Positions 16,590-64,000 of a stretch of 64,000 nt of DNA are shown piece after piece. Each line of letters begins with the position of its first letter. The first letter of the stretch is position 1. Source of the DNA: Polyangiaceae bacterium (lineage in GTDB: Bacteria; Myxococcota_A; Polyangia; Polyangiales; Polyangiaceae); assembly GCA_033763455.1 (NCBI GenBank), contig JANRKO010000020.1, positions 1-64,000 on the forward strand, given 5' to 3'. The translations under genes and the position numbers were made by a program. The notes beneath the pieces are model-generated. The model saw only the letters and a list, made by a program, of their open reading frames with translations. It ran no database searches and was not told the origin of the DNA.

Positions 16590-16778
16590 GGTTGGAGCAA
16601 GGGTAAAGAGGTGGAGCCACCTGAACGCCGTAACGGACGAGACCCACAGCTAGTTTAGCAGGCGCCCCTGCGGGATCGCCTCGGGGAACCCGCGGCCAGG
16701 TGGCCAACCGCCAGCTTCTCGCACTTTTTTGGCGATGGCGCTCTTTGCTTCCGCGTTGCGGGAGCCGTTTCCGCTGAG

Positions 16779-17177: not shown

Positions 17178-17191
17178 GGGGCCTCATTCAT

Positions 17192-17884
17192 ATGCGAAAC
17201 CAACAAAGCTCTTTCATGGAACCACCCCGAAACCAAACGCTCCGACGTCTGCTCTTCTGCGCTGCCCTGTTGGGTGCCGGCGCCTGCGTCTACGACGCCA
17301 GCGAAAAATGCAGCACCAACCAACGCTATTGGAATGAAACCTGTATCTGCGTTGAAGGCGCCGTTCAATTGCCTAACGGATGCGTTCCATGTGGAGAAAA
17401 CGAAACCCCAGTGGGCAATGAGTGCGCCTGTGTGGCCGGCTACGAGCGACTCGAGGCTGGCGCTAAGTGCACGCCACGCGCGTCACAGCTTGGGGTTGCC
17501 TGTGACACCGCGAGCACCCCCTGCAGCGATCCCAATTTCTCCGAATGTCACGTCGTGAGCGGAACTTCCGGATACTGCACGAGCACCGGGTGCAGCGCGG
17601 AGAAGCCTTGCACCGGAGATTACGCGTGCGACACCAATGCTTCTGTTCCTTATTGCCGCCGGCCTCCCGTGGGCGCTGGGAAGGCGTGCGCCGCCCCAGC
17701 CGATTGCGCTTCCACCGAGGCCACGTATTGCGAAAGCTTCTCCACTAAACAATGTTTCGTACAAGGCTGTACCCAGAGTCCTAACAGTTGCTTTCCAGGC
17801 ATGGAGTGTTGCCTCATCAGCTTGCTCGGCAAGACCCTCTGTCTGCCTCCAGGTGGTTGCGCCAAGGCGGGAGGTACCCAGTGA
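17192..17884 (+). CDS. Cysteine-rich lipoprotein
   Basis: Lipobox-like LLGAGAC followed by many small Cys modules; start may be 17216. Confidence 0.7.
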   Translation: MRNQQSSFMEPPRNQTLRRLLFCAALLGAGACVYDASEKCSTNQRYWNETCICVEGAVQLPNGCVPCGENETPVGNECACVAGYERLEAGAKCTPRASQLGVACDTASTPCSDPNFSECHVVSGTSGYCTSTGCSAEKPCTGDYACDTNASVPYCRRPPVGAGKACAAPADCASTEATYCESFSTKQCFVQGCTQSPNSCFPGMECCLISLLGKTLCLPPGGCAKAGGTQ

Positions 17885-19407
17885 GACACACGTTTTGGAT
17901 GGGCATCGCCCTTGCTGGCTTCGCAAGCTGGACGCCCCTATCCGCCTCGGCAGAGGAAAGCAGTGAACCAATAGACGCGGCTTCGAGCTCAGGCGTCGTT
18001 CGAGGAGCTCCGTCAAACAGCCCAACACCGCCTCCCGCGACTTCCGATAGCGAAACAACCGACTTGGGGCCCGGGGCTCCAACCACAACGCCAAGCGAGG
18101 CACCTTCACACGCAGCAGAGAGCACGAACAATCAACAAGCCGCCACAGGTGCCACCCCAATCGCTTCGGATCCCCAGCCTGCGCCCCAGAAACTGAGCGA
18201 CGAGGAACTTCTTACTCTCGACAACGGAGAGCTCCCCACAGATTTAACGGACGACGCCCCAGCACTGCAACTCTACGGTTTCGCGGACTTCACCTACTCC
18301 GGGTTACTTATCGGAGACAACAACCGGTGGGCTCAAATCTACCACCCGTATGCGAGCTTCGCGGTGGGAAACCTCAACGTCTACCTAGCCTCCGAGCTGG
18401 GGCGAGATTGGCGCGCATTGAGCGAAGTGCGCTTCACGTATCTGCCGCACGGTTCAGAAAGGATAGTAAATGGTGTCACCGAACGAGCCGATGGCACAGC
18501 CAACAACTACGCGGATTTCGAGCGACCTGTCCAAGTGGGCGGCGTCATTTTGGAGCGCGCTTGGCTCGAATACACCCTCACCACCAACTTCACCCTCCGT
18601 GCCGGCCAATGGCTCACGCCTTACGGCATTTGGAACGTTGACCACGGCTCGCCCACGCTGATCGCAACCCACCGCCCTTTTACGATCGGCGAGGAACTTT
18701 TCCCCGAACGGCAAACAGGCCTTGAACTCCATGGGAAGTATAACCTCGGCGAGACTGATCTAGGCTACCACTTAACGCTTTCCAACGGCCGCGGCCCCGT
18801 GGACTCCTATCATGACTTCGACCGCAACAAAGCAATCGGAGCACGAGTTTTCCTCGAAACGCGAGTACTGCCCGGTCTTTTGACGGCGGGTGGCTCCTTC
18901 TACAAAGGAACCTATACAGATCGGGCTGAACTGAACTCCGTGGACTCATCTTCCGGCGAGCCCATCCTTTCGATCTCGCGCCCGATAGTGGAAAAATACC
19001 ATGAGCTTAGCCTAGCCGCAGATGCAAAGTGGGAATGGAAAGGCCTGCAGACGCAGAGCGAAGTCATTTTAAATCAAGCGGCCTACGATGTGCGGGGCGC
19101 GAGGCAGGGCCTCAATGGATCCTACTTCACTGCCGATTATCAGCGCTGGGGGGTGTACGGCTTAGTTGCGTACCAGCTGCCGTGGGTTCCGGTGATGCCC
19201 TACACGATCGTCGAGTACTACAACTTCGCCAACCGCCCTGAAGTTCCGCCCGGCGGCGGCGTTTACCTGGGGCTCAACGTGCGTCCTATCCCGCGCGTTA
19301 CGCTAAAAGGCCAATATACCTATGGCACTTTCGACGGGCTCGGCAGCTTGGGGCTCGGCAGAGATTCGATCAGCATTTTTGAACTGCAAGCAGCCTGGAG
19401 CTTCTGA
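17881..19407 (+). CDS. Putative outer-membrane beta-barrel (porin-like) with a disordered N-terminus
   Basis: Signal peptide, LQLYGFADFTY, LERAWLEY, LRAGQWLTPYGIWN, C-terminal QAAWSF with terminal Phe; GTG start overlaps the upstream TGA. Confidence 0.75.
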   Translation: MRHTFWMGIALAGFASWTPLSASAEESSEPIDAASSSGVVRGAPSNSPTPPPATSDSETTDLGPGAPTTTPSEAPSHAAESTNNQQAATGATPIASDPQPAPQKLSDEELLTLDNGELPTDLTDDAPALQLYGFADFTYSGLLIGDNNRWAQIYHPYASFAVGNLNVYLASELGRDWRALSEVRFTYLPHGSERIVNGVTERADGTANNYADFERPVQVGGVILERAWLEYTLTTNFTLRAGQWLTPYGIWNVDHGSPTLIATHRPFTIGEELFPERQTGLELHGKYNLGETDLGYHLTLSNGRGPVDSYHDFDRNKAIGARVFLETRVLPGLLTAGGSFYKGTYTDRAELNSVDSSSGEPILSISRPIVEKYHELSLAADAKWEWKGLQTQSEVILNQAAYDVRGARQGLNGSYFTADYQRWGVYGLVAYQLPWVPVMPYTIVEYYNFANRPEVPPGGGVYLGLNVRPIPRVTLKGQYTYGTFDGLGSLGLGRDSISIFELQAAWSF

Positions 19408-42275: not shown

Positions 42276-43090
42276 CGCCGATAAACCGCCGGTTCAACGT
42301 AGTGAAAGGGATGCCCCGTTTGGCCCAAGGACTCGCTCATCCCTATGAACAGGAGCCCGCCTGGAGCCAGTAAATCATAAAAGCGACCCACCACCCGAAG
42401 CCGTGTGGGCAGATCGAAGTAGATCATCACATTGCGGCAAAAAATTGCATGAAATGGGCCCCGCATCGGCCAACTTTCCATCAGATTCAGGCGCGCAACG
42501 TGAACACGCTCGCGAAGGGGTGCACGCACCCTATGTCCGGCGGGCACACGCTCGAAGTGTTTGGCTCGGCGCGCCTCATCGACGCCGACAAGCTGATCTT
42601 CATCGTAAATTGCTGCCCGGGCAACGCCGAGTACCCGTGATGAAATGTCTGTGGCCAGGATCCGCGCCTGCCGAAACGCTGAGGGCTCAAGCTGCTCGGC
42701 TAGCAACATGGCGAGCGTGTAGGGCTCCTCGCCGGTAGAGCACCCCGCACTCCAAATGCGCAACGGCTCCTCCGCGGCCGAAACTCCAAACCCCTCTTCC
42801 ACCAAAAGGTCAAAATGGCGAGATTCCCGGAAGAAGTTGGTCTTGTTGGTGGTGAGCACATCCACCATTTCGGCCAGCTCTTTAGGGTCCGCCTCTACGA
42901 GGTCCAAGTAGCTTGAGTAGCTTGCTACCCCTAGAAGCCGCATTCGACGTTGTAGGCGGGTGCCCACTAGGGCCTGCTTTCCATCACGGTACTCAAGCCC
43001 GGCGGCTTCATAGGCAAGATGCGCAACCCGCTCGAATTCAGCTGCGCTGAGAAGATCGCCATTTGCCGACTGAGCGGAAGATGAATTCAA
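42272..43090 (-). CDS. cheR: Chemotaxis methyltransferase CheR
   Basis: [33 protein letters not shown]. Confidence 0.95.
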
Positions 43091-45570
43091 TGCGGTAACC
43101 CTGTTCTAGCGATCAGGTCGCGCCGGCGCGCAATAGAGGCAGTCCCCGTAGGCCTTCTTAGGGGGATCACATCCTCTTTGCTCAGCTTGAATGCACCCAC
43201 GAGCTCCTTCATGCTGCGTGCCTGCTCCGAGAGATGCAGGGCAGCGCTGGCGGCCTCTTCGGTGGTTGCCGCCGTGTGTTGAGTGGTTCGAGAAATGTCT
43301 TCTACGCCCAAGTGGATCTGCGAAACCCCTTGGCTTTGAGCCTGGGCGCGCTGGGCGATATCCGACATGATGTCCACCATTCCTGAAACTCCACGGGAGA
43401 TCCCTTCGAACCCTCTCGTCAGTTCCCCGGTGAGGTGCGCCCCCTTCTCCGAGTGCGCCACCGACGCATCAATCAACTCGGCGGTACTTTTCGCAGCGTC
43501 CGCGCTGCGTGTGGCCAGGTTGCGAACTTCTTCCGCAACCACCGCAAACCCTCGGCCCGCCTGCCCGGCTCGCGCTGCTTCCACTGCTGCGTTGAGGGCT
43601 AAAAGGTTGGTCTGGAAGGCTATCTCGTCGATTGTGCGCACGATTTTTGCGGTTTCGGCCGAAGATGCCCGGATCTTCTGCATGGCGTCAGCTACACGCT
43701 CCACAAGCTCTTGACCGCTCGTGGCGCTCCGCCGCGCATCTTCGGCAAATGTACGTCCTTGGTTGGCGCTCACAGCCGTGCTCTGCGAAGCAGAATTGAT
43801 CTCCTGGAGGCTCGCCGAAATTTCCTCTAACGCGCTCGCTTGCTGACTTGAAGCTTGCGCGAGTGACTGGCCACCGTCGGTAATTTCAGCAGCCGCCGCG
43901 GCCACCTGATCCCCAGATTTGCTCACCTCACCGAGTGCCGTGGAAAGAGAGGCCAGGGCCGTGTTGAGAGACTGCTTGATGGCGTCGTAATCCCCTGTGT
44001 AAACGCCTGTCATGCGCACGCTGAGGTCACCCTTTGCCACAGCCTCGAGCACGTCACGGGAGGCGTTGATGGGAGCACTCACTGCCTGCAGCATGGCGTT
44101 CATCCCAGCTAGTAGCTCCCGGTAGACGCCACCCAGATCTTCAGTCTCCGCACGGTTCGACAATGCACCAACTTTGGCCGACTCGATAAGCTGCGCAGTT
44201 CGCTGCACCAGGCGTTCGAGTGCGGCATGGGCCACCAGGAAGCTTCGATTGAGTTCATCTTTTTCCCCCGCCAGCTGGGGCCTCACTGAAAGGTCACCAC
44301 GCCCAAGCGCTTCTGCCACCCGAGCGACCTCGCGTGTGTAATTCGTCGTATCGCGCAGCGCCTCGGCCAACTCCCCCACTTCGTCCGTTCCCTCGTGGGT
44401 CACGCTCTGGCTAAAGTTACCGTGTGAGATAGCGCGAGCCGCAACTGCCATCTGAGCGAGGGGGGCCGCAAAACGCTTACCAATCCACCAGCCCAGAAGC
44501 AGGCAAAGCACAGCCGTGGCTCCGGCTAATATCGCGAGAGCTCGCCGGACGTCTGCGCTTTGACTTAGAGCCTGGTCAGTCGATATCCGAACCATCACAG
44601 TCCACGGCATGCCCGCGAACCCCATGGCCCCTCTGAAATGACTGTACCCGACGACTTGAGGAACCTTCTTCCTCAGGTGTTCCGCGACGAGTGTGCCCTG
44701 CTCCCCCTTCAACGCCTTTCTTATCGCTGCATGGTCCGCCAGTGAGAACTTCAACAACACGCCGCGGTCACGCGCTAGCTCCTTTCCTGCGCCACGAGTT
44801 GGATCATAGTCCACAAGGATTTTGCCCTCACTGTTGGTGAGTACGATATCGGCTCCCGGGAACCCCGCTTCACTGATTTCGGCGTGAGCGGACCGTACAA
44901 TCTCCTCCACCAAGGCCAAATCCGCGGTGTTGTGGACGTAGCCGACCACTTTACCAGAGTCATCGAACATTGGAGCACTGAAAGTCAGGACGTACGCTTC
45001 CCTGCCCAAAACCTGCGCCAACGAATCATCGAAGCGTGCGTCTTCGATGTACGTGCCCGTTGCCTTGTCGTTGCCCGATCCCGCAAAGGGTTGTTGAGTC
45101 GTGAACCTGCCGGCTTGAGTCTCTTGAAACCACTTGGCCCCGCTCAGATCTCGCCCCAATAGCGTCGCGGTCGGCAGAGATTTGCCAGCCGCATCCTTCG
45201 AACTTACTGCCACAACTTTGCCACGAACATCCGTCACTTCTATGAGCAGGTAGACGCCGTAGAGACGAATGTACGTATTGAGCGCGTTTGTCGTCGGGGA
45301 GTCAACCTTGCCCCAATGCTCGGCATTCCTGAGCGTTGCGCTACTTGCGAACGCCTGCACGTCTCCGTAACGCTCAAATATGTTGCGGTCCACTCGGTCT
45401 CCGAGGAGCTTTGAGAAGATCGCAAACCGCGGATCCTCCAGATCATGCTTCTTGGAATCTTCACCTGTGGTAATCGCGATGATGGCCACGGGCACCAAGG
45501 CGAAGAGGCTGAGCACCGCAATGACTTTACGGGCTAACGTCCAACGGAATGCACTTTTTCTTAATGCCAT
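43087..45570 (-). CDS. Transmembrane methyl-accepting chemotaxis protein (Cache-like sensor, multiple HAMP domains)
   Basis: 2 TMs, [18 protein letters not shown] (DEVGEL), [20 protein letters not shown]. Confidence 0.92.
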
Positions 45571-45580
45571 CTCGGTGCTC

Positions 45581-47254
45581 CTAGAAATCCAGCAGGCCAT
45601 CTTGGCCTTCATCGTCGTCAAACGGGATTAGCTTTGCGGCTGCGTTGCCTGTCGCCTTGCTGAGGGTTTGATTGCGCTCGGGTGCTCTTGGCTTGGGCGG
45701 CACACTCTTCGGAGGTGGCGAGCTTCTGCGAGTCCCCGTGCTGGCACGAAGTGGCACTCGTAGCGCAGACGGCTCACGCGCGGGGGCGTACCCCTCGCCA
45801 CTCAAAGAAAAGCCGGCAAGTAGCCGCGCGATATCCCCACTCTGACTAGTGAGCTCTTGGGCAGCTGCGGCCGACTCTTCCATCGCCGCTGCCGTCTGCT
45901 GGCTCGACCTAGACATCGATTCGACAGTCGCTCCTATCAGGGCCACACTCTGGCTTTGCTGCTCGGTGGCCAGCGCTATTTCCGCCATGACTTCCACCAC
46001 CGCACCCACGCGTGAAGTAATCTCTTGAAATCCGGCAACGGCCGCTGCATTCAACTTAACGCCGTCTTCGGCGCTCCGAACTGACTCATCGATCATTCGC
46101 GACGTATCCCGCGCTGCCTCGGCACTCCGCATAGCCAGAGCTCGCACCTCTTCGGCGACTACGGCAAATCCGCGCCCCGCGTCACCCGCCCGAGCCGCTT
46201 CCACTGCGGCATTGAGCGCAAGAAGATTCGTTTGGAACGCGATCTCATCGATGACACGAATAACCTTCGCCGTCTGGGTGGCGGTCGCTCGAATGCGCTC
46301 CGTAGCCAGCGACATTTTGGCGAGATCCGCGGCCCCTAGCACAGCGCTGTCGCGAGCACCCTCGGCCAGCCCTCGAGCTTGTTGAGCATTGGCCGCGTTT
46401 CGTTTGCCGCTTCCCATTACCTCCTGGAGGTTAGAGGTGATCTCTTCAAGCGCAGCGGCACCCTCGCTCGTCGCTTTGGCAACCACCTGCGCGCCCAAAT
46501 TGATTTCAGCAGCTGCCCCCGCAAGGCTCTGCCCGGTGAGGGCTACCTGACTGAGAACCTGATCGATGGTCTCTGCCGCTTGATTTAAGGCATCCATGAC
46601 CTCTCGATCCTCAGCGAAAGCTTCTCCCCGAACGGTGAAGTCACCCGTGGCCAGGGCTCGGGCAACTATGCCAAACTCGGCAAGAATTCGCGTCCGCTCA
46701 GCACGCGCGGACTCAACATTCGCAAGCTGTGCTGCCTCTCGCGACATACGTTGCGCAAAAGCAGCAACTATTGCAGCATCTGCTTGAAACACGCAAAAAA
46801 GAGCTTCCCGAAACCGAACCAGAGAGGCTCCTTTAACACCCGCGGCCGACGCGGTGGCAAGAAGCCCGTCCTTTAGATCAGTCTGTGCATCCAACAGCCA
46901 GAACCTGTGGTCGCAATCAGAGAGGCGCACCAGTTTCTCACGCGTAGCGAGGGCCCCATCACCAAACGTTCCAGCGAAAATCGAGTCAAGATACGCAGGC
47001 AATTGCCCCCGAGCTTCATCTTGTGCTTTCACGTCCGCCCCGAGCCTGCGGTCACGCTCTAAACGAGCCACCACGCTCCAGCTCAACTCCGCGAAACACC
47101 CCTGAACCGTCGCCCTATGAGTAGCAAGCTCATGCAGAGCCATCGGCAGGCCCGGATGAAACGCCAGAAGCGCAGCAACAGTCGAATCTGACACCCGCAC
47201 CTCCGGCAGCGCGGTGATAGCCTGGTGAGCTCGGAAGAAAAACCAATTAAACAC
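45581..47254 (-). CDS. Soluble methyl-accepting chemotaxis protein
   Basis: No TM pair; [20 protein letters not shown]; acidic C-terminus ending GLLDF. Confidence 0.9.
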
Positions 47255-47257
47255 AGC

Positions 47258-47752
47258 TCAATGCCCTTTCCCGCCGGCTACTCGTGCGGGCTCTTCGGTC
47301 GCAAGGATGCGATCTATATCGAGTATCAACCGCACCCGACCCTCTTGCTTGGCGACCCCCAACAGATATGAAGTATCTACGGACACTCCAAATTCAGGCG
47401 AAGGCGCGATCTCGCCAGGCGCCAGTGTCACCACCTCGGACACGCGGTCCACTAGAAGACCAACTTCCCGGCCACGAGACACGACGACCACAATGCACGT
47501 CTCTCGAGTTGCAGCAGCACGTGCCATCCCGAAGCGGCAGCGCAAGTCTATCACGCTAATAATCTTGCCACGCAAGTTAACCACACCGGCAACATATTTA
47601 GCCACCCGTGGCACCACCGTGATTGGCATACTCCCCACAATTTCCTGCACCGCTAGAATCCCAAGCGCGTACTCTTCCGCACCCAAGAAGAAGGATAGGT
47701 ATTGCTCTCCGTGAGGGGAGGAATTGTCGCTCGGTGCAAGTTCGGTGCTCAT
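47258..47752 (-). CDS. cheW: CheW
   Basis: YLSFFLG.EEY, VQEI, GVVNLRG. Confidence 0.93.
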   Translation of the reverse strand: MSTELAPSDNSSPHGEQYLSFFLGAEEYALGILAVQEIVGSMPITVVPRVAKYVAGVVNLRGKIISVIDLRCRFGMARAAATRETCIVVVVSRGREVGLLVDRVSEVVTLAPGEIAPSPEFGVSVDTSYLLGVAKQEGRVRLILDIDRILATEEPARVAGGKGH

Positions 47753-47764
47753 GTTCGTCTCCCA

Positions 47765-49639
47765 CTAGCTAGCCAACGACAAGGGAACGTTGGCCTCATT
47801 TCGAGCGAGCAGCTTCAGCTCTGGTGGGTCTAAAATGAGCCCCACCCGGCCATCACCAAGAATCGCTCCGCCTGAGACGCCATCCACATGCCCCATCGTT
47901 TCCCCTAGGGCCTTTGCCACCACCTGTTGTTGACCTAAGATCTCATCCACCATCAGCGCGCAACGCCCATCAGAATCCGACAGAACCAGTAGGATTGCTT
48001 GGCTTGGATCCGTCTCCGCATCGGGCACATCGTACAAGCGATGCAAGCGGAACACTGGAATCAACTCCCCGCGCAACATCAGCATTTCTCCCCGCCCGGC
48101 AACGCTCGACAACATCGATGGTGTGGGCCGGAGGCTAAGCTGAATATTAACCATCGGCACCAGGTAGCGCTCACTCCCCACTCGCACCAACATACCCTCT
48201 GTAATCGCGAGAGTTAAGGGTACGAAAATGCTAAACGTGGTGCCACGTCCCAGGGTGGAGCTGATATCGATTCTCCCTTTCAGAGATTCGACACTGCGCC
48301 GCACCACATCCATCCCCACCCCACGCCCAGAGAGATCTGTAACCTGCTGTGCTGTGGAAAAACCAGGCGCAAAAATCAGGTCATAAACCGACGCATCGCT
48401 CATGCCGGCTCCGCTCTCAATCAGCCCCTTAGAAATCGCCTTGGCGATCAGTCGCTCACGGTCGAGCCCACCGCCATCATCCGAGAGCTCCACGACAACG
48501 TTGCCGCCGGCGTGAAACGCTCGCAGCAAAATCTCTCCGTCGCGGGGTTTGCCCGCCCGAGCGCGCTCTTCCGGCGTTTCAATCCCATGATCCACCGCGT
48601 TTCGAAGCATGTGCACCAGAGGATCCGCCAGAACGTCCACCATGTTGCGGTCGATATCTGTATCTTCCCCTTCAGTGCGCAGGCGAACCGCTTTGCCGCT
48701 TTTTACGGAAGCATCCCGCACCACACGGCCAAGCCGCTGGAAGGCCGCACGCAGAGGCACCATCCGGAGCGCCAGGCTGAGCTCTTGCAATTCGCGCACG
48801 ATTTTGCCGGCATGGTTCACCTTCTTCTGCAGCTCAACCTGCCCGGGGCGCCCGAGGGTTTCGTCCTGCGAGACCATGGATTGCGCAATCACCAGTTCGC
48901 CTACCATGTCGATCAAGCGATCAAGTCGATCCGTCCTCACCCGCACTGAAGCCTCCTGAGCCGCCGCTGCCTCTCGGCGCACGGGTGCTTCGGCGACGGG
49001 TGCTTCCGCAGTGCTAGATGCTGGCCTCTGAACTGCGGTCGGGGCTGGTTTGAGTACTCCTGGTTCCGCTACAGAGGACGCTGGCGCCACTACCCCGTGT
49101 GCCCTTTCTTGTAGCTCTGCCGTCAGCCCTGCGAGGCCCTGCGGAAGGTAAGCTGGCCCGCCGCTAGTCGCCGATTGCACGGCCTCCACCAGCGCCTTGA
49201 GGGCGTCCAGGGAACGGAGGGCGAGCTGTGGCACAACTCCCGTGAAGTTGAGCTCCCGATCGCGCACCTTGCTCATGAGCGACTCGGCCACGTGTGCAAA
49301 GTGCGCTATCACGTCGATGCCAAGCATTGCAGCGACGCCTTTCACGGTATGAAATGCTCGAAATACCGTCCCGACAGCTTCCATATCGTCGGGGTCCTGT
49401 TCCAAAGACAAGAGTGCCGTCTCGGCCTGGGCTAAGTACTCGCGTGATTCGGTAAGGAACTCGGAAACCAACTCCTGATCACGGTCAGCGGGCAGCACTA
49501 AGCGCTCTCGGAGCTCTTCCTTTGCCACCATGGCTTCCGAACTCTCGGACTCATCGAGCCAGTTTGGCTCCGAACCTGTGGTTACCCGAGGGGGGGGTTC
49601 GGGCGCCGTGGGTTTGGAAGGGGGTGTTTTTCTTGCCAC
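47765..49639 (-). CDS. cheA: Chemotaxis kinase CheA (no recognisable P2 domain)
   Basis: FRAFHTVKG, LIDMVGELVI, HMLRNAVDHG, SGRGVGMDVV, C-terminal CheW domain; GTG start with GAGG. Confidence 0.95.
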   Translation of the reverse strand: MARKTPPSKPTAPEPPPRVTTGSEPNWLDESESSEAMVAKEELRERLVLPADRDQELVSEFLTESREYLAQAETALLSLEQDPDDMEAVGTVFRAFHTVKGVAAMLGIDVIAHFAHVAESLMSKVRDRELNFTGVVPQLALRSLDALKALVEAVQSATSGGPAYLPQGLAGLTAELQERAHGVVAPASSVAEPGVLKPAPTAVQRPASSTAEAPVAEAPVRREAAAAQEASVRVRTDRLDRLIDMVGELVIAQSMVSQDETLGRPGQVELQKKVNHAGKIVRELQELSLALRMVPLRAAFQRLGRVVRDASVKSGKAVRLRTEGEDTDIDRNMVDVLADPLVHMLRNAVDHGIETPEERARAGKPRDGEILLRAFHAGGNVVVELSDDGGGLDRERLIAKAISKGLIESGAGMSDASVYDLIFAPGFSTAQQVTDLSGRGVGMDVVRRSVESLKGRIDISSTLGRGTTFSIFVPLTLAITEGMLVRVGSERYLVPMVNIQLSLRPTPSMLSSVAGRGEMLMLRGELIPVFRLHRLYDVPDAETDPSQAILLVLSDSDGRCALMVDEILGQQQVVAKALGETMGHVDGVSGGAILGDGRVGLILDPPELKLLARNEANVPLSLAS

Positions 49640-49669
49640 GCAAACCTCGAAAAAGGGGGTGTAGGGTTA

Positions 49670-49696
49670 CGAACGGCTGATCCGGACGTGTGTTAA
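49670..49696 (-). promoter_or_regulatory. Sigma-28-like promoter for the cheA1 operon
   Basis: TTAA-N15-GCCGTTCG. Confidence 0.45.
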
Positions 49697-49742
49697 GGTG
49701 CTGTTCTTTGTCTAAGTTCTGGCTTTCTCCGTGGCCAAGCCT

Positions 49743-49769
49743 TAACTCGAACCAAACACCAGCCGCTTA
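49743..49769 (+). promoter_or_regulatory. Sigma-28-like promoter for the MshEN-repeat gene
   Basis: TAAC-N15-GCCGCTTA. Confidence 0.35.
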
Positions 49770-49784
49770 CCTGGCAAGGCAAAC

Positions 49785-50189
49785 ATGGGGACAGCTAGAT
49801 TTGGCACTTTTCTGGTAGAACGCGGCGCGGTGACCGCGACGGATATCATGCAGGCTCTCGACGAGCAGTCGCGAAGGCGGCCCGTGCTGGGGCGCTTAGC
49901 GATCAAGCACGGATACCTAACGGTGGCGCAAGTGTTCCAGGTTTTGAACCAACAGGCGGATACCGGGCTCAAATTCGGCGAACAAGCCATGCGCCTCGGG
50001 TACCTCAAGGATGCAGACGTCTACAGCCTCCTCCAGCTACAGCGCAGTGAAACTCCGCGCATGAGCGATCTTCTAGTACAGCTTGGCAAGATCTCTGAGC
50101 CCGCTCTCAGAGCAGCGCGACTCGCGTACGAACGTGAAGTTCCCGAGGCAGACCAAGGATCCACCAGAGGCGACGAACTCCGATTCTAG
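49785..50189 (+). CDS. Stand-alone protein of four MshEN-like motifs
   Basis: RFGTFLVERGAV..AL.EQ, VLGRLAIKHGYL..VL.QQ, KFGEQAMRLGYL..LL.LQ, RMSDLLVQLGKI. Confidence 0.7.
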   Translation: MGTARFGTFLVERGAVTATDIMQALDEQSRRRPVLGRLAIKHGYLTVAQVFQVLNQQADTGLKFGEQAMRLGYLKDADVYSLLQLQRSETPRMSDLLVQLGKISEPALRAARLAYEREVPEADQGSTRGDELRF

Positions 50190-50193
50190 AGGA

Positions 50194-50676
50194 TCATGCC
50201 GCGCCCTTCTTTGACAACACTCGAAATCGCAGGCTCGCGTCGACCTCGCCCTCCTCTAGTGCAACCCTGACGTTTGCGTCGCCACTGGGAAGCTCCTCCC
50301 CGAGGGCAAGGATGCGCGGCGACATCAAATCAAACACGGCTTGGCCGCCAGCGATGAGCGGCAAAACGTTACCGCACACGATGTTGGCAAGCTCACGCAA
50401 AGCATCTTGTTGAACCGTTTCGGACTCGACGTCATCATCCCCCAGCATTGCCGAAGCGATGGGAGCGAGCATACTTGGCGCCACCGAAATCCAGAGCGTT
50501 CCCTCAGCTGGGCCAATGAACTCCACTGCCACCGCAACGCTTCCCCTCGGCAAGTCGGCCAGAGCGACACCGTTCGTGCCCGGAGGCGGGACGCTCGGTT
50601 GAGGCAGCATGAAGCAAAGGCCTTCAAAAACCTGATAAACGGATTGCGTAAGAGCGGACGCCCAAGCCTGATTCAT
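50194..50676 (-). CDS. cheX: CheX-family phosphatase
   Basis: FIGPAEG, IASAMLG, DALRELANIVCGN. Confidence 0.85.
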   Translation of the reverse strand: MNQAWASALTQSVYQVFEGLCFMLPQPSVPPPGTNGVALADLPRGSVAVAVEFIGPAEGTLWISVAPSMLAPIASAMLGDDDVESETVQQDALRELANIVCGNVLPLIAGGQAVFDLMSPRILALGEELPSGDANVRVALEEGEVDASLRFRVLSKKGAA

Positions 50677-50680
50677 GTTG

Positions 50681-51061
50681 TTAGCCTCCCGTCGTGGCCG
50701 AAATAATAGCGTCCACGAGCACCTCGGGGCCAAAGGGCTTCCGTATGAACGTGGCCCCTAACTGGCGGAATAGTTCGATGCGGGCCTCACTACCCTCCGT
50801 GGACACCATAATGACGGGAAGCTCTGCCAACTTAGCATTAGCCCGAATGCGCCTTACCAATTCCTCCCCATTCATCCCGGGCATATTAACGTCAAAGAGC
50901 CCTAGATTAATGTCCGCTTCGCGCGTCAAGACGTCCAGCGCTTCTTGCCCTTCGCAGGCCTCGTGTACTCGCCCAATCGGCAAGTTACTCATCCCCAAGA
51001 CCCGGATGAGCATTTTGCGCATCACCGGGCTATCATCTACCACCAGCACCTGATAACTCAT
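50681..51061 (-). CDS. cheY: CheY-like response regulator
   Basis: VVDDS, FDVNMP, VSTE, RKPF. Confidence 0.88.
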   Translation of the reverse strand: MSYQVLVVDDSPVMRKMLIRVLGMSNLPIGRVHEACEGQEALDVLTREADINLGLFDVNMPGMNGEELVRRIRANAKLAELPVIMVSTEGSEARIELFRQLGATFIRKPFGPEVLVDAIISATTGG

Positions 51062-51116
51062 CGTTCGTTTCCTTCCCAAAGAACTCGCGCCAAAGCTCCC
51101 ACTCTCCCCCGTACTG

Positions 51117-51602
51117 TCATCGGCGCCCAAGTTCGATGATGTCTTCCGTTGAGAGGATGGCGTCTATGTCGAGCAACAAACGAACCTTGCCGTTTGCCTT
51201 GCATATGCCCAAGAAATATTCAGCAGCCATGCCACTTCCGAGATCTACCATCGCTTCGGTATCTGCGGAGGTGACGTCCCTCACCTCGGAAACGGTGTCG
51301 ACAACGATGCCGAGCTCCATATCTGGCCGACGCACAACGATAATACACGTTTCGCGGCTCGCTTCGCGGGGTGGCATGGAGAACTTCGCACGCAAGTCGA
51401 TTACAGGAATAATCTTGCCGCGGAGATTAATCACACCTTGCATGAACGAAGGGGTTCCGGGCACGGGCGTAACCGGCATCATTCCGATAATCTCTCGCAC
51501 CTTGAGGATGGCGATGCCGTACTCCTCGGCTCCAAGAAAAAAGGAGAGATATTTGCCTTCCAGGCCGGGCTTCCGTGGGCTGGTGGACGCGTTTTCGGTC
51601 AT
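51117..51602 (-). CDS. cheW: CheW
   Basis: YLSFFLGAEEYG, VREIIG, GVINLRG. Confidence 0.93.
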   Translation of the reverse strand: MTENASTSPRKPGLEGKYLSFFLGAEEYGIAILKVREIIGMMPVTPVPGTPSFMQGVINLRGKIIPVIDLRAKFSMPPREASRETCIIVVRRPDMELGIVVDTVSEVRDVTSADTEAMVDLGSGMAAEYFLGICKANGKVRLLLDIDAILSTEDIIELGRR

Positions 51603-51666
51603 GCTGTCGCCATTTCGTTGAAGGCCCTTGTCAACCTTACCTTAGAAGCAATAAGCGCTCGCAGAA

Positions 51667-51693
51667 CAAGCGGCCGCCTGAAACTTAAGTTTA
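51667..51693 (-). promoter_or_regulatory. Sigma-28-like promoter for cheW-cheY-cheX
   Basis: TAAA-N15-GCCGCTTG. Confidence 0.4.
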
Positions 51694-51726
51694 GGATTCA
51701 TGGACTTAAGTTTAGGATTCATGGAC
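51683..51726. repeat. Perfect 21-bp tandem duplication (ACTTAAGTTTAGGATTCATGG x2)
   Basis: Copies start at 51683 and 51704. Confidence 0.95.
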
Positions 51727-51870
51727 GGAGCCCGGTGCAGGCAAAGCTGCTACTTCCAACCACACCAAAGCGCAGTTGCCGATGCGTTGACGGTCCCTAT
51801 CTCAAAGTGACACGTCGCTGACGCACACACGCCGTTCCCCACCCACCATCCAGCCTACAGGCCGACATCT

Positions 51871-52236
51871 TCAGCCTCCCAAAATCGGCTGGAGCGCCTC
51901 TTGAAAAGCCTCCGGTGTGAAAGGTTTGGCAATCAGAAACTTCGCTCCGGCCGAAGCCGCCTGTTGGCGCATTTCGACAGTTCCTTCCGAAGTGACGAAC
52001 CCAAACGTAACTTTCACGTCCCGTTCACGCAGCGTTTCGAGCAGCTGAATGCCCGTCATGTTTGGCATATTCCAATCACAAAGAACCAGGTGCGGCAGCT
52101 TCTCCTCGATAGCCTTGAGGCCTTCCAACCCATCACCAGCCTCTCGAATATCGTGTTCTCCAAGGCCCGCCTGGCGCAACGTTTTCCGCACAATCATGCG
52201 CATGGCCTTGCTGTCATCAATAATCAATATATCCAT
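51871..52236 (-). CDS. cheY: CheY-like response regulator (copy 2)
   Basis: About 84% identical (hand count) to 35597..35962; GGAGG ribosome site. Confidence 0.9.
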   Translation of the reverse strand: MDILIIDDSKAMRMIVRKTLRQAGLGEHDIREAGDGLEGLKAIEEKLPHLVLCDWNMPNMTGIQLLETLRERDVKVTFGFVTSEGTVEMRQQAASAGAKFLIAKPFTPEAFQEALQPILGG

Positions 52237-57922: not shown

Positions 57923-58602
57923 CGCGAGGGCTGGGCCCATTTCAGCTGGCTTTGCCCACTTGACCGGACGGACTGGCGTCGAGTTCGGCAACCGTTCAAC
58001 AGCGCTGCGCTTCGAAGGGGGTCAGCGTCTGGGTAATACCGGCGTTTGCCTGGTCTGCCTGCTCCCCACTGATTTTTGCTAGCCAGCTTGCATCCTCGAC
58101 GCGCACGCTGGGTATAGAGAGGGTGGCCAACGCACGTTCGGGGCATTCGCGTCTTTCTGACTTGCCCGACCGCTCCCACCTCCGTCCTGACCCTCGTTCG
58201 CCGGCCGCCGGGAACGTCTTAGGCCAGTTCCAGCAGAAGCCCACTAGCGTTGACGCCTGAGCAACACCCTCCTCATTGAGAATGATGCTTGACCGAGTCC
58301 CTCACTGGGCAAGAGCGCGCGCCCGCGCCCGACGCCGCACGCCAGGACACTGAGAACCTGCAACTGCGTCGCTTTGTCCGAAACCTGCAGTTGCGCCTAG
58401 GCGAACTGAACCCGTCGCGCACAACGCAACGAGATGGCAAAAAAGCTACCAAAACCTAGGCCACAAAGGCTCAACAACAATCAATCAACAACCTTCGCTC
58501 CCTCCACAGGCGCAAGCTCCCGCAGCGTCATCACCAGATACCATGACACGCATCATCTGGTTCCGTGCATAGATTTCTCAAAAAAAAAAGGCCCACGCGC
58601 CT

Positions 58603-58705: not shown

Positions 58706-61045
58706 ATGACGGAACTTGATGACGTCGTTAAAGAATTCTTGGTTGAAAGCCATGAGAACCTGAGTGCGCTGGAGCAGGATCTGGTTCGGCTGGAGCAAAC
58801 CCCAGACGACTCAAAGGAAGCCCTCGCTCGGATATTCCGCACGGTGCACACAGTCAAAGGCACCTGCGGGTTTCTAGGATTCTCCAAACTTGAGAGCGTC
58901 ACCCACGTCGGCGAGAACCTGTTGAGCAAGCTGCGTGACGGCGTTCTCCACGTTACAGGGGACATAACCTCCGCACTTTTGGCCTTAGTGGACGCCATCC
59001 GGGAGATGCTAACCTCGGTCGAAACGACCGGAGAGGAGGGCCCGGGGGACTACAGTGCTCTCATCGCCGAGCTCACCCGCCTGCTTGAACCCAAGCAGGC
59101 TCCCCCAAAACCACAACTTCGAGCCGCTGATGCATCCGTTGAGGTGGAGCGAGCGGAAGCCCCAGTGGCTCCCATCGGGGAGCTCTTGGTCCAAGCGGGC
59201 CGCGTGACCCGCGAAGAGGTCAAAGAGGTGCTTGAGCTCCAGCAGGCGGGCGACCCCCGGCACGTAGGCGAAATCTTAGTGGAGCAAGGCAGAATTGTTC
59301 CCGAAGACGTGGTGGACGCGCTCAACGTCCAGAAGAAGGCCAAGCCGCAAACGGGAGGCCTTGCCGACACAACTATTCGCGTCGAAGTGAGCCAACTGGA
59401 TAAGCTCATGAACCTCGTGGGCGAGCTTGTTTTGGCTCGAAATCAGATCCTACAGTTCATCGGCCCGGACACCGACGCAGTACTGCAAACCACCACTCAG
59501 CGACTGAACCTCGTTACCACTGAGCTGCAGGAAGGCGTGATGAAGACGCGCATGCAGCCCATCGATACCGTGTGGTCCAAGTTCCCAAGAGTGATTCGGG
59601 ACTTAGCGCGTTCCTGCAGGAAGCGTGTACGCGTTGAGATGGAAGGGCGAGATACCGAGCTCGATAAGACGATTATCGAGGCGATCAAAGATCCACTCAC
59701 ACACATCGTTCGCAATGCGGTCGACCACGGCGTGGAATCTCCCGAAGAGCGAGAAGCAGCAGGAAAGCCACCGGAAGGCTTCTTAAGGCTCCAAGCATTT
59801 CATGAAGGCGGACACGTAAACATAGAGATATCGGACGATGGTGGCGGCATCGATCCGGAGAAACTAAAGCGCAAAGCGCAGGAAAAAGGCCTGGTATCAG
59901 CCGCTGCTTTGGCACGCATGTCCGAGCGTGAGCTTCTTTCATTAATTTTCATGCCCGGCTTTTCGACGGCCAAGGAAGTCACCAACGTCTCCGGCCGCGG
60001 AGTGGGCATGGATGTGGTGAAGACCAACATCGAACGCATTGGCGGTACCGTGGATATTAGTAGCCGCATCGGTGCCGGAACAACCATCCATATCAAGATC
60101 CCCCTCACCTTAGCGATCATTCCCGCACTTGTGGTGGCTTCCGGTCACGAGCGTTTTGCGATTCCGCAGGTGAGCCTTTTGGAGCTCGTGCGCATGGATC
60201 TGGAAAAGCCCAACGGGGGCATTGAAGACGTGAGCGGTGTGCCCGTGTATCGATTGCGCGGGAACCTGCTTCCAATAGTTGACCTTGGCTTCGAGCTTTT
60301 CGGAAAGAAGTCCAACATCGGCGAAAATGGCGTAGCCACCATTGTTGTTCTGCAAGCCGATGAGCGGCAGTTTGGGCTTTTGGTCGAAGAGATCCACGAC
60401 ACCGAGGAAATCGTCGTAAAACCTCTAGGCAAGCAGCTCAAGAATCTCTCCGCATTCTCAGGTGCGACCATCATGGGAGACGGCCGCGTAGCCCTAATCT
60501 TAGACGTTTTGGGGCTGGCTCAAATGGCGCGTGTCGTGGGTACAACGCGAGATCGTTCGCTCGGCGATCGTGGCAAACATGCGCAAGAGTCAGCCGAGAA
60601 GCCGGAATCGTTGCTGCTGGTACGTGTGGGTACACGCCAGACTCTGGCTATCCCGCTCAGGCTCGTGGCACGCCTCGAAGAAGTTGCGTTAGATTCGGTC
60701 GAAAGGGCTGGTGCCAGCAACGTCGTTCAGTATCGCGGGCAGATCATGCCCCTCATCCACCTGAGCGAGGTTGTTTCTGAGATTGTAGAAGCGGATCTGG
60801 TTGCGCCCGAAGTATTGTCCGTAGTGGTATTCGATCACCTGGGGCAAAGCGTGGGCCTCGTGGTTTCGGCCATCGTAGATATCGTGGATGAGGCCGTAAA
60901 GCGCCACTCAACCGCCAAACGCCCAGGAATTTTGGGCTCCGGCGTGGTGCAAGGGCAGGTTGTTGAGTTGGTTGATCTTCCTGGGTTGATGCAGCGCGTA
61001 TTGCCCCGCGCCGTTTCGGACGCCCCCGCCGCACTCGTAGCTTGA
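58706..61045 (+). CDS. cheA: CheA with an MshEN-like insert in place of P2 and two C-terminal CheW domains
   Basis: FRTVHTVKG, LMNLVGELVL, HIVRNAVDHG, SGRGVGMDVV, two CheW-like modules. Confidence 0.95.
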   Translation: MTELDDVVKEFLVESHENLSALEQDLVRLEQTPDDSKEALARIFRTVHTVKGTCGFLGFSKLESVTHVGENLLSKLRDGVLHVTGDITSALLALVDAIREMLTSVETTGEEGPGDYSALIAELTRLLEPKQAPPKPQLRAADASVEVERAEAPVAPIGELLVQAGRVTREEVKEVLELQQAGDPRHVGEILVEQGRIVPEDVVDALNVQKKAKPQTGGLADTTIRVEVSQLDKLMNLVGELVLARNQILQFIGPDTDAVLQTTTQRLNLVTTELQEGVMKTRMQPIDTVWSKFPRVIRDLARSCRKRVRVEMEGRDTELDKTIIEAIKDPLTHIVRNAVDHGVESPEEREAAGKPPEGFLRLQAFHEGGHVNIEISDDGGGIDPEKLKRKAQEKGLVSAAALARMSERELLSLIFMPGFSTAKEVTNVSGRGVGMDVVKTNIERIGGTVDISSRIGAGTTIHIKIPLTLAIIPALVVASGHERFAIPQVSLLELVRMDLEKPNGGIEDVSGVPVYRLRGNLLPIVDLGFELFGKKSNIGENGVATIVVLQADERQFGLLVEEIHDTEEIVVKPLGKQLKNLSAFSGATIMGDGRVALILDVLGLAQMARVVGTTRDRSLGDRGKHAQESAEKPESLLLVRVGTRQTLAIPLRLVARLEEVALDSVERAGASNVVQYRGQIMPLIHLSEVVSEIVEADLVAPEVLSVVVFDHLGQSVGLVVSAIVDIVDEAVKRHSTAKRPGILGSGVVQGQVVELVDLPGLMQRVLPRAVSDAPAALVA

Positions 61046-61057
61046 AAAGGGAACTCT

Positions 61058-61507
61058 ATGCTGACTGAGAACCAATACTGCACGTTCACATTGGGCCCAT
61101 TCATGTTCGGAGTCGGTGTGCGTGAGGTGCAAGAGGTCATTCGCTACCAAGAGATGACACGTGTGCCCTTGGCCCCACGCACGGTGGGAGGCCTTATCAA
61201 TCTACGCGGGCAGATAGTGGTAGCCGTAGATTTGCGCGAGCGATTGGGCTTACCCGCGCGCGATTCAACGGTGCTTCCTATGAATGTGGTCGTGTGCTCT
61301 GACGACGGTGCCGTGAGCCTTTTGGTCGACGAAATCGGCGACGTTATCGAGGTCAGCCCGTCCGAATTTGAAGCCGCACCCGACACACTTACGGGAACAG
61401 CTCGAGATCTAATAACCGGCGTCTACAAACTTGAGGGAAAGCTCCTGCTCGTTCTCGACGTCAACAAGACCGCCACCACTGAACTTGAAATCGCAAAAGT
61501 TGCCTAG
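61058..61507 (+). CDS. cheW: CheW
   Basis: YCTF, VQEVIR, GLINLRGQIV. Confidence 0.93.
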   Translation: MLTENQYCTFTLGPFMFGVGVREVQEVIRYQEMTRVPLAPRTVGGLINLRGQIVVAVDLRERLGLPARDSTVLPMNVVVCSDDGAVSLLVDEIGDVIEVSPSEFEAAPDTLTGTARDLITGVYKLEGKLLLVLDVNKTATTELEIAKVA

Positions 61508-61526: not shown

Positions 61527-64000
61527 ATGACTACTACATCTGCCGCCACCTCTGAAGACGTGAACCTTTATGAGCTCCTAGGAGGTGAAGATATTATCCG
61601 AGCCGCCGTGGACGCATTTTACGAACGCGTGCTCGCTGACGAAGAACTTGCACCCTACTTCGAAGACGCAAATATGAAGGGGCTAAAGAAGAAGCAAACG
61701 ATCTTCTTGTCGCAGGCTTTGGGCGGCCCCCAAAAGTATCGCTGGCGCGACATGCGAACGGCTCACGCAGGAATGAACATCACAGCCGAGCATTTCGATC
61801 GAGTTGCTGAACACCTGGTGGCAACACTCACCGGCTTGGGCGTGAACATGCCCACCGTAAACAAGATCCTAGCGGTGGTAGCGCCGCTTAAAAACGACAT
61901 CGTGGACGACCGCAGCAGCGGCAAACAACCAATCTCAGAGGAATCTCGCATGGCAAGCTTATCGCAAATCCCCCCCCATCAGAACGGCTCCGCTCGCAGC
62001 TCCGCCCCGAAGGCCCCGCTTGGGGCCCTCGCGCAGGATAGCGCAATTTTGGCAGAGCTGCTCGAAGCCCTGCACACTACAACTGCCTTTCAAGACGTGG
62101 TCACCACCGCGCTGGAGCTTGTGTGTGAACGCATGGGCTGGAGCTACGCCGCGTACCTATCCGTCGATACCGAACAAGACGTGATGCGTTTTGTAGCCGA
62201 CTACGGGCAAACGGACGCCGCCCTTTCCCGTCTAGTGCGAGGTGCACAGTGGCGGCGTGGCGAAGGGATCGCCGGCCAGGCCTGGGACGATGGTAAACAA
62301 CTCGTGGCGGATGCGGATGAGGACTTTGGAAATCCGCGCTTGGCAGCAGCCGCGGAACGCGCACGAATGGCCACCAGTCTCGCGTTGCCCCTCTCGCTAG
62401 GGAACCGTACGGCAGGCGTATTCCTTTTCTACTCAACCACTGAGCAGAACGTGAACTCCCAGGCGCAGAAGGTGTTCCGAAGCGTGGCCACATTAGTGGG
62501 TGCTGCCGTCGAACGCGCTGACACTGGACGCATTCGATCCATGTTGGATAAGGCCCCCACCAACGTCATTTACGCGGATAAAGACTTCATCATCCGCTAC
62601 GCTAATGCGGCTTCACTGAAGACCCTCCGGTCCCTGGAAACGTATCTCCCCTTCAAGGCCGACGAACTTGTTGGAAAATCAATCGACGTTTTTCACAAGC
62701 ATCCAGAACACCAACGCAAGTTACTTTCGGATCCGAAGAACCTCCCCCACCAAGCCCTCATCCAGCTTGGTCCGGAGACACTAGATCTTTTGGTGAGCGC
62801 AATTACGGACGACTCTGGCCGCTACCTTGGGCCCATGTTGACCTGGCAGGTTGTTACCCAGAAGGTGAAAACCGAACGCGAAATGGCGCGCATCTTCAAC
62901 ATGATGGAAAACGCACCCATCAATGTGATCTATGCCGACAAGAATTTCAACATTCAATACATGAACCCGGCATCGCTCCGCACGCTAAAGAGCATTGAGC
63001 AATATCTGCCTGTGCGTGCTGATGAAGTTGTCGGAAAGTCAATTGACGTTTTCCACAAGCACCCAGAGCACCAGCGCACCTTGCTCTCTGACCCAAAGAA
63101 GCTACCTCATCAGGCCATCATCAACGTAGGTCCAGAGAAGCTCGACCTGCTAGTAAGTGCCATTTACGACTCCAAGGGGGAATACCTGGGCCCGATGGTC
63201 ACCTGGCAGGTGGTAACGCAAAAGCTCAAGACCGAGCGTGAAATGGCGCGAATCCACAACATGATGGAAAACGCACCCATCAACGTCATTTACGCCGATC
63301 GCGAAGGCACCATTCAGTACATGAATCCTGCCTCTTTGAAGACGCTCCGCTCCCTCGAGGCACACCTACCGGTGCGCGCGGACGAAATCATCGGAAAATC
63401 GATCGACATCTTCCACAAGAAGCCGGAGCACCAGCGCGGTATCGTTGCCAACCCAAAGAACCTCCCCCACGAGGCCACCATTTCCGTCGGCCCAGAGAAG
63501 CTGCGACTGCTCGTGAGTGCGATTCTCGACCAAAAGGGTGAATTCCTCGGGCCAATGCTCACTTGGGAAGTAGTTACCGAAAAACTCAAGCTTGAGGCCA
63601 AGCAGAAGGAAACCGCAGTGCTATCTGCCGGCATGTCAAAGCTGATGGAAGCCCTGGGCAATGCACTCACTCCGAGCGAGTGCCTGCGTGTCGCCCTCGA
63701 CACCATGCGCGAAGGCTTCAACTGGACCTACGGAGCGCTGTGGCCTCTGGACACCGAGAGCAAAACGCTCAAGTTCATGCAGGATTCTGGCGAAATTGCG
63801 CCGGAGTTCCGGCGTTCATCTGAAACAGCGACGTTTCGTTTGGGGCAAGGCCTCGGTGGTCGCGCCTGGCAAAGCATGGACATGATAGCTGTGGATGATC
63901 TCTCCCAGCTCACCGATTGCCCCCGCGTAGGCGTGGCGGGTCGCATTGGTATCAAAACAGGAGCCGCCTTTCCCATCATTGTGGACGGTAAGCTCTGGGG
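61527..64000 (+). CDS. Partial soluble sensor, probably a chemoreceptor: group I truncated globin - GAF - 3x Aer2-like PAS - GAF, running off the window end
   Basis: Hand translation from ATG 61527 (GAGGG ribosome site) finds no stop to 64000: LYELLGG..AVDAFYERV..QTIFL..ALGGP..TAHAGM; GEGIAGQAW; 3x SID.FHK.PEHQ..LGPM.TW. Confidence 0.88.
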   Translation, partial: MTTTSAATSEDVNLYELLGGEDIIRAAVDAFYERVLADEELAPYFEDANMKGLKKKQTIFLSQALGGPQKYRWRDMRTAHAGMNITAEHFDRVAEHLVATLTGLGVNMPTVNKILAVVAPLKNDIVDDRSSGKQPISEESRMASLSQIPPHQNGSARSSAPKAPLGALAQDSAILAELLEALHTTTAFQDVVTTALELVCERMGWSYAAYLSVDTEQDVMRFVADYGQTDAALSRLVRGAQWRRGEGIAGQAWDDGKQLVADADEDFGNPRLAAAAERARMATSLALPLSLGNRTAGVFLFYSTTEQNVNSQAQKVFRSVATLVGAAVERADTGRIRSMLDKAPTNVIYADKDFIIRYANAASLKTLRSLETYLPFKADELVGKSIDVFHKHPEHQRKLLSDPKNLPHQALIQLGPETLDLLVSAITDDSGRYLGPMLTWQVVTQKVKTEREMARIFNMMENAPINVIYADKNFNIQYMNPASLRTLKSIEQYLPVRADEVVGKSIDVFHKHPEHQRTLLSDPKKLPHQAIINVGPEKLDLLVSAIYDSKGEYLGPMVTWQVVTQKLKTEREMARIHNMMENAPINVIYADREGTIQYMNPASLKTLRSLEAHLPVRADEIIGKSIDIFHKKPEHQRGIVANPKNLPHEATISVGPEKLRLLVSAILDQKGEFLGPMLTWEVVTEKLKLEAKQKETAVLSAGMSKLMEALGNALTPSECLRVALDTMREGFNWTYGALWPLDTESKTLKFMQDSGEIAPEFRRSSETATFRLGQGLGGRAWQSMDMIAVDDLSQLTDCPRVGVAGRIGIKTGAAFPIIVDGKLW
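62541..63590 (+). repeat. Three tandem 360-bp PAS-coding repeats
   Basis: Units start at 62541, 62901 and 63261. Confidence 0.9.

Follow-up and report, generated by a model that had tools for sequence, protein, structure and literature searches.

The stretch of DNA analysed here, hereafter the window, comprises the first 64,000 bases of contig JANRKO010000020.1 (C20; assembly GCA_033763455.1) of a Polyangiaceae bacterium of the Myxococcota, and its end is occupied by a chemoreceptor gene lying directly behind cheA and cheW. The reading frame opens with an ATG at position 61527, runs to the end of the window without a stop, and ends at contig position 65600, encoding 1357 amino acids. Using Pfam and local profiles, the full domain order was read as a group I truncated hemoglobin (trHbN), a GAF domain, three Aer2-type PAS domains, two further GAF domains, a HAMP domain, and a methyl-accepting chemotaxis protein (MCP) signaling domain of 38 heptads (Table 1). 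Within this receptor, the part most deserving of experiment is a conserved candidate internal translation start in the linker behind the globin.

Table 1. Positions of the chemoreceptor gene, its parts and related genes (positions beyond 64000 lie on the same contig outside the window; L-numbered entries are other loci)
Feature	Position	Strand	Details
cheA	58706..61045	+	two CheW domains (F5 type); MshEN-like insert ~59171-59332
cheW	61058..61507	+	
Chemoreceptor gene	61527..64000 in window, to 65600 on contig G000:C20 (same numbering)	+	
Group I truncated hemoglobin (trHbN) domain	61563..61904	+	Pfam Bac_globin, HbN alignment
Low-complexity linker, globin to GAF1	61905..62039	+	~45 amino acids
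Candidate internal start	61937..61952	+	Shine-Dalgarno-like 61937-61943, in-frame ATG 61950-61952 (Met142)
GAF1	62040..62522	+	diverged, 27% identical to GAF2, without family Cys
Aer2-type PAS1	62529..62867	+	His390, Leu421, Trp440
Aer2-type PAS2	62889..63227	+	His510, Leu541, Trp560
Aer2-type PAS3	63249..63587	+	His630, Leu661, Trp680
GAF2	63624..64000 (to contig position 64106)	+	Cys798 in D-C-x-R motif; rest, to 64106, beyond window
GAF3	64140-64622	+	91% identical to GAF2; Cys970
HAMP	64644-64802	+	
38-heptad MCP domain	64803-65597	+	
cheY	65630-66019		downstream of receptor
cheB	66016-67122		downstream of receptor
cheR	67109-67918		downstream of receptor
cheX	ends 68402		downstream of receptor
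hemA-like gene	L027:8723-9934		
hemA-like gene	L176:7470-8729		
hemA-like gene	L110:4146-5324		
hemA-like gene	L033:8828-10513		broken by frameshifts

Pfam matches on the receptor include Bac_globin at residues 13-125 (83.8 bits), three GAF stretches, PAS, and MCPsignal, the last at 116.4 bits against a cut-off of 34.6; together with the surrounding cheA, cheW, cheY, cheB and cheR genes, this identifies the product as an MCP. Since its highest 19-residue hydropathy is only 1.39, the receptor lacks a transmembrane segment and is soluble. A contig from a public sequencing run, possibly of the source sample, extends from the globin through the linker and GAF1 to PAS1 and differs in a single letter, which argues that the globin fusion is not an assembly join error. 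A first-pass annotation had described a single transmembrane-free frame of more than 820 codons behind cheA-cheW, encoding a soluble receptor beside its own CheA, and had supposed its MCP domain to lie past the window; frame, architecture and operon agree with this, and extension of the sequence located MCPsignal after a further GAF and HAMP. Its statement that the gene had been missed by the open reading frame track was correct only in part, as the frame (protein P0001) had been listed with open ends because it runs off the window.

The best match of the globin in the PDB is Mycobacterium HbN (E 5.8e-28, aligned without gaps). Its 36 listed PDB matches, headed by HbN and further truncated hemoglobins of group 1, include no HemAT, and Bac_globin is its sole Pfam globin family, so that it falls outside the HemAT-type 3/3 sensor globins. 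The HbN alignment bears out the group I hallmarks recognized earlier, namely the Gly-Gly motifs (Gly19-Gly20 and Gly66-Gly67), Phe31-Tyr32 (B9-B10), Gln57 (E11) and His80 (F8), and adds Phe45 (CD1) and Leu53 (E7). Across 58 family domains with the 2/2 fold, His F8 is present in 58, Tyr B10 (Tyr32 here) in 56, and Gln E11 in 53. One deviation had been overlooked: ahead of helix F, Trp73 stands where the Tyr-x-Gly stretch has its Gly, a truncated hemoglobin hallmark found in 55 of the 58 domains, and these letters are the same in contigs of two runs, one possibly from the source sample. Tyr B10 and Gln E11 have been linked to slow O2 release (PMC4720485).

In the PDB, PAS1 matches are confined to the Aer2-type structures 6CEQ (E 2.9e-21), 3VOL and 4HI4. 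The residues serving heme and O2 in Aer2 PAS domains are the E-eta His, I-beta Trp and H-beta Leu (PMC10107281), and alignment to these three structures places all of them in each of the three repeats, in agreement with the Aer2-type His and late-strand Trp proposed before. Among 460 family PAS domains, the His is kept in 458, the Trp in 457 and the Leu in 438. The first His of the PAS motif (458 of 460, versus 243 for the second) is presumably the heme ligand, also by Aer2 numbering. Four intact predicted heme-type sites per chain, in two classes (globin and PAS), are thus supported. Support for heme demand is added by hemA-like (glutamyl-tRNA reductase) genes, which lie directly behind the receptor inside the che operon at L027, L033, L110 and L176, though not at the study locus. 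The spacing between PAS domains is nearly constant in the family, mostly 120-121 amino acids.

The linker behind the globin carries signs of a possible second translation start. A purine-rich, Shine-Dalgarno (SD)-like site, pairing with the anti-SD at -6.0 kcal/mol, lies 6-7 bases ahead of the Met142 ATG, and a start at this candidate site would yield a globin-less receptor of 1216 amino acids. For comparison, dereplication left 23 globin-first genes, 6 of which were assigned 3/3 globins by eye, and these were scored with a pass threshold of -5 kcal/mol or stronger. An in-frame linker ATG occurs in 14 of the 23 genes, and its SD passes in 13 of the 14, against 3.8 expected; none of 100,000 draws of random positions in the same linkers reached 13. 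The threshold is passed by 10% of 381 internal ATGs from these genes, 3/20 out-of-frame linker ATGs and 5/36 ATGs in CheA linkers, versus 81% of 21 true gene starts. Of eight held-out genes added later, seven passed under the identical rule. At the protein level, an SD-coding dipeptide (from a list picked after viewing the linkers scored) precedes Met in 26 of 34 Met-bearing linkers, out of 47 linkers in all, where 4.3 were expected. RNA folding is also weaker at the 13 candidate sites than at internal ATGs (-4.0 vs -8.3 kcal/mol), which may be due in part to linker composition.

Comparison between loci points in the same direction. In several fused proteins, the residues behind the linker Met match the true N-terminus of the receptor at L171, which lacks a globin, and locus L101 represents the unfused state, with a separate globin gene and a receptor of similar N-terminus. 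The start site is kept beside a 12-base indel between the study gene and its 75%-identical counterpart at L107, and is present in loci labelled from several phyla. We conclude from these patterns that the second start likely lets the cell also make a globin-less form. Long and short forms of one chemotaxis protein are produced from one gene in the case of Escherichia coli CheA; the likeness lies in the two in-frame starts, while the protein there is a kinase and here a receptor whose optional part would be a whole globin domain. If used, the internal start would be a simple way to change the sensor make-up of chemosensory arrays, one that annotation would miss. In the literature searched, outside which most subscription papers lie, neither an internal start in such a receptor nor an experimental study of a Bac_globin+PAS+MCPsignal receptor was found. 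The three C-terminal 3/3 globin fusions have no start codon in the linker. Strong-SD GTG hits in Alcanivorax-type linkers were left uncounted because they lie at the end of the globin and disappear when the first two positions are omitted. At L178, a 3/3 globin (5590-5950) is apparently frameshifted off the receptor, possibly by an assembly error, and the receptor would still start at the linker SD and ATG.

To describe the family, a search with residues 1-700 returned 1068 proteins, of which the best 120, a set biased to long multi-PAS proteins, were examined. A globin is present in 65 of them, of the 2/2 fold in 57 (2 C-terminal) and of the 3/3 fold in 8; the Bac_globin+PAS+MCPsignal core occurs in 57, and truncated hemoglobin, GAF, PAS and MCP are combined in only 5. 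A second set consisted of 160 loci retrieved with the PAS pair as query (80 of 195 genome and 80 of 154 metagenome hits, not dereplicated and some cut by contig ends), in which the globin is N-terminal in 29, C-terminal in 3, in a separate frame in 2, and absent from 126. Thus, 32 loci are fused and 2 split, the latter being 2 of 34 globin-linked loci and one of them apparently a frameshift. Locus labels include Myxococcota, Acidobacteriota, Spirochaetota, Eisenbacteria, Binatia, and Gammaproteobacteria such as Alcanivorax. The family is nonetheless sparse within any one phylum: at E 1e-28, 15 of 401 genomes of the same phylum gave a match to the PAS or the fusion, and a top-scoring globin was obtained in 2/251 and 3/251 genomes of two other phyla, all in long frames. 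A 50%-representative search added few fusions, 128 of its 149 new proteins being multi-globin repeat proteins. In P0018, P0045, P0050, P0051, P0059, P0077, P0097, L173 and L176, a different type of PAS domain stands between the globin and the heme PAS, and by eye it looks flavin adenine dinucleotide-binding.

The attachment of the globin is far less regular than the PAS array. Linker length ranges from 13 to 67 amino acids across 55 proteins. On the receptor tree (built with FastTree from 187 rows after near-copies had been taken out; contig ends truncate some of the 'no globin' rows), the N-terminal 2/2 globin requires 20 gains or losses, at least 8 of them forced by starred branches, and the 3/3 globin 11, with the direction of change unreadable; the nearest labelled neighbours of the study protein are Myxococcales and Polyangia proteins. 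A globin tree (86 rows, 119 columns) does not distinguish one fusion from many.

The best explanation of these observations, to which we give about an even chance, is that the PAS hemes sense O2 and that the globin is a loosely tethered accessory, carried by some chains only by virtue of the second start. The division of roles follows from the nearly fixed PAS spacing, which is what in-line units stacked on one another would show, set against a globin linker of variable length and a globin that changes its end, fold and gene; the restriction to some chains follows from the start behind the globin, which likely gives a globin-less form. For the same reasons, and given the conservation of the internal start, the earlier proposal that up to four hemes integrate signals into CheA stands as regards the four predicted sites, while in-line signaling by all four is doubtful. 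By analogy with work on Aer2, each PAS domain would hold a b heme by its E-eta His and steady O2 with its I-beta Trp, and the signal would run along the dimer axis through GAF2-GAF3 and the single HAMP to CheA, CheY and the flagellar motor, the output probably being aerotaxis or O2-dependent motility control. With its HbN-like pocket, the globin may bind O2 tightly and turn nitric oxide (NO) into nitrate; its most likely job would be shielding the PAS hemes from NO or buffering O2 next to them rather than pushing the signaling axis, and the globin load of the array would be fixed by the proportion of long and short chains. In a broader and more tentative form, which we consider somewhat less probable than not, this would be a widespread family of gas receptors in which each gene gives two proteins, with and without a hemoglobin cap, whose ratio tunes O2 sensing against NO, and for which 2/2 and 3/3 globins have been recruited several times. 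If this is true, a truncated hemoglobin works in a chemosensory array, and translation initiation selects the set of sensors that the receptor carries.

Several results weigh against this explanation. Nine of the 23 genes have no linker ATG; two of these possess a strong SD with GTG, two a weak one, and five neither, so that two forms are not a rule, and the five include the genome's own paralog and most Alcanivorax-type genes. The relatedness of the genes inflates all internal-start statistics, and the p-values are overstated. The last PAS lacks the Aer2 DxT motif and is split from HAMP by two GAF domains, and Trp73 may weaken the study globin. NO dioxygenase turnover needs a reductase, and neighbour clustering of 23 loci found none recurring next to the operons. 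Finally, three chemotaxis gene clusters are seen in the genome, any of which may steer the motor.

Strong conservation of the distal globin residues would also suit a different role, in which the globin is a true second sensor, binding O2 tightly at very low levels while the PAS domains cover higher ones, so that each chain would span a wide range; combined with the internal start, this would give a mixture of wide-range and PAS-only chains. The repeated joining of globins to this receptor type (2/2 and 3/3, N- and C-terminal) and the excess of fused over split loci fit such a role, which is close to the view taken in the first-pass annotation and in PMC6194562. However, linker length and sequence vary freely, the globin can swap its fold and its end of attachment, L101 has it split off, and no signaling output of a trHbN was met in the literature passages available. 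We hold the second-sensor role, with or without the internal start, to be rather unlikely, though the strongest of the alternatives.

The existence of L101 and the many changes on the receptor tree, together with a globin tree compatible with one fusion or many, also speak for the idea that repeated fusions left the internal start behind: the stop codon of a globin gene upstream would have been lost, the former start of the receptor gene would not have decayed yet, and either only one protein matters or the fusion is near neutral. The rarity of split loci is a poor fit to many recent fusions, and the site persists across loci labelled from several phyla and beside the indel in the 75%-identical pair; moreover, a leftover SD and ATG would probably still be used. 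We consider a mere leftover improbable.

The GAF domains invite a further alternative, namely that in this particular protein GAF2 and GAF3, which sit between PAS3 and HAMP, are the main input, either by binding a small ligand or through Cys798/Cys970 thiol chemistry, with the hemes only tuning the response. The Cys is retained in most family GAFs, and receptors with GAF and MCP that lack PAS occur (L102), but 113 of the best 120 homologs lack a GAF of the study type, so the family works without it, and no ligand can be assigned. The predicted GAF2 model (predicted local distance difference test score, pLDDT, 94.9) matches many GAFs, among them Lcd1, PtsP, fRMsr and phytochromes, about equally well at about 11-22% identity, so that no single ligand is named; NreA is weak by sequence, and a nitrate-sensing GAF that reads the product of the globin was considered and found no support. 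We regard a GAF-led receptor as the least probable of these explanations, behind PAS-based O2 sensing with an accessory globin. A search for shorter proteins bearing the study GAF returned none at E 0.001 and is uninformative, as such proteins occur in the fetched loci. HAMP scores under the curated Pfam cut-off (19.8 bits in the whole protein, 23.8 alone), and an AlphaFold model made from the sequence alone for residues 1-691 (mean pLDDT 43.8) was not used.

The first-pass annotation had suggested that the architecture was undescribed, and for the core this does not hold. This core, Bac_globin+PAS+MCPsignal, was reported in silico by Sharma, Parales and Singer in 2018 for Corallococcus coralloides Cc_4972 and six other genomes (seven proteins in 8,075 genomes) and proposed as an aerotaxis sensor (PMC6194562), and more than a few homologs share it, as described above. 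Three-PAS heme receptors have likewise been characterized (PMC10107281). The study receptor combines the same three Pfam types in a protein without transmembrane segments; it is a variant, enlarged by GAF domains, of a kind of receptor already known in silico, the GAF-bearing form being rare. It resembles Cc_4972 in being a soluble myxobacterial receptor encoded in a CheA-CheW-MCP...CheB-CheR cluster, and differs in its three GAF and three PAS domains and in an operon with cheY and cheX and without ABC1/ABM genes. In the available passages of PMC6194562, the PAS domain is treated by analogy to Aer, and neither heme ligands nor an internal start is named.

Aer2 of Pseudomonas aeruginosa, Vibrio cholerae and Vibrio vulnificus is likewise soluble, with up to three His/Leu/Trp PAS domains in tandem (PMC10107281, PMC13401364), and provides the best PDB and NCBIfam matches of the study receptor. 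Unlike Aer2, which has di-HAMP, DxT and a 36-heptad domain, the study receptor has one HAMP, V-V-T, 38 heptads, an F5-type operon, GAF domains and a globin; the Vibrio Aer2 model NF041847 gives it 388 bits where 1200 is the cut-off, and it lies outside Aer2 proper. HbN of Mycobacterium tuberculosis (PDB 1IDR) shares the gapless alignment and the B10 Tyr, E7 Leu, E11 Gln and F8 His (PMC4720485, PMC3493545), whereas it is a free protein, and the study globin is fused and carries E15 Leu and Trp73. Bacterial T1/N globins are listed as single-domain in a 2020 review (PMC7475203), and the word 'truncated' is absent from a 2026 aerotaxis review (PMC13401364). HemAT globin-coupled sensors are also soluble and likewise combine a globin at the N-terminus with an MCP domain (PMC13401364, PMC7475203), but their 3/3 sensor globin is near the output, while the 2/2 globin here is about 900 residues away behind a free linker.

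The roles of most truncated hemoglobins are unsettled, and the study case ties one to a measurable output (CheA activity, swimming bias). For a globin placed beside a second heme class, a role as sensor, NO shield or O2 buffer can be told apart by receptor assays in routine use, and the family has hosts in culture, namely Alcanivorax (L096, L098) and Corallococcus (PMC6194562). The receptor further extends Aer2-type heme sensing to F5/38H systems. Should the internal start be unused, the study receptor would be just another reshuffling of domains in a kind of receptor known in silico.

The operon reads cheA-W-mcp-Y-B-R-X. Relative to the E. coli serine receptor, a 36H class member, the signaling domain contains one 7-residue insert in each arm, which assigns it to the 38H class. 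F5 systems are recognized by the order A-W...B-R, an extra CheW domain in CheA and a 38-heptad receptor (PMC10746217), and 38H receptors pair with them (PMC10746217, PMC6759762); gene order, the two CheW stretches in CheA and the heptad count place the study system in this class. A second F5-type operon on C68 encodes a truncated hemoglobin-PAS-PAS-MCP paralog (L017, about 15970-18010), whose linker is an Asn-Gly repeat without an internal ATG; it is also found in a same-genus genome (G002). The genome contains a flagellar gene cluster on C73, two heme-copper oxidases and six MCP genes; the cluster and the oxidases speak for the explanation favored above. No profile match to the FliM family was obtained in the genome, yet by eye an open reading frame occupies its usual site between fliL- and fliN-like genes.

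The CheA of the operon had been described as MshEN-bearing. Its insert scores 39.3 bits with the NCBIfam MshEN-related model NF053729, only just over the cut-off of 38, and most hydrophobic positions, Gly and Gln of two 24-residue RLG...Q motifs are kept, but the Arg of RLG is absent from both halves, replaced by Pro and His. Changes of charged residues in MshEN cause at most a fivefold loss, and MshEN on CheA has already been listed (PMC5013675). The insert occurs in CheA of only 7 scanned loci under a strict pattern, plus one doubtful match, and five of the 7 are the study gene and its near relatives; it is not a family trait. A stand-alone protein of 134 amino acids (49785-50189, +) contains three MshEN-related stretches (85.9 bits, cut-off 38) and is judged from its sequence to be the better candidate receptor for cyclic diguanylate. 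It sits on the opposite strand within a second chemotaxis cluster of the window (43087-52236, -), composed of cheY, cheW, cheY, a cheX-like gene, cheA, cheW and two MCP genes. One of these MCPs (557 amino acids, 45581-47254) has an N-terminal region without a Pfam match that, by eye, might be sensor globin-like.

A few further observations concern the surroundings. At the end of the study operon (L001:10375-11991, contig 68374-69990) lie genes for a GNAT-like acetyltransferase and a histone-deacetylase-family protein, the latter apparently recurring in L026 and L107. The operon at L027 includes a second globin fusion (12539-13630), in which Bac_globin is joined to an extended helical tail; by eye, an HD-type protein comes next. 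A heme-copper oxidase subunit I at G000:C66:21571-22863, in a 792-amino-acid frame, appears cbb3-like by eye and is possibly fused to the next subunit. No RNA dataset is among the listed holders of the chemoreceptor sequence, the best of which are sediment and soil metagenomes. Upstream of cheA, a run of ten A residues (58580-58589) lies in a stretch of about 780 bases without a clear gene.

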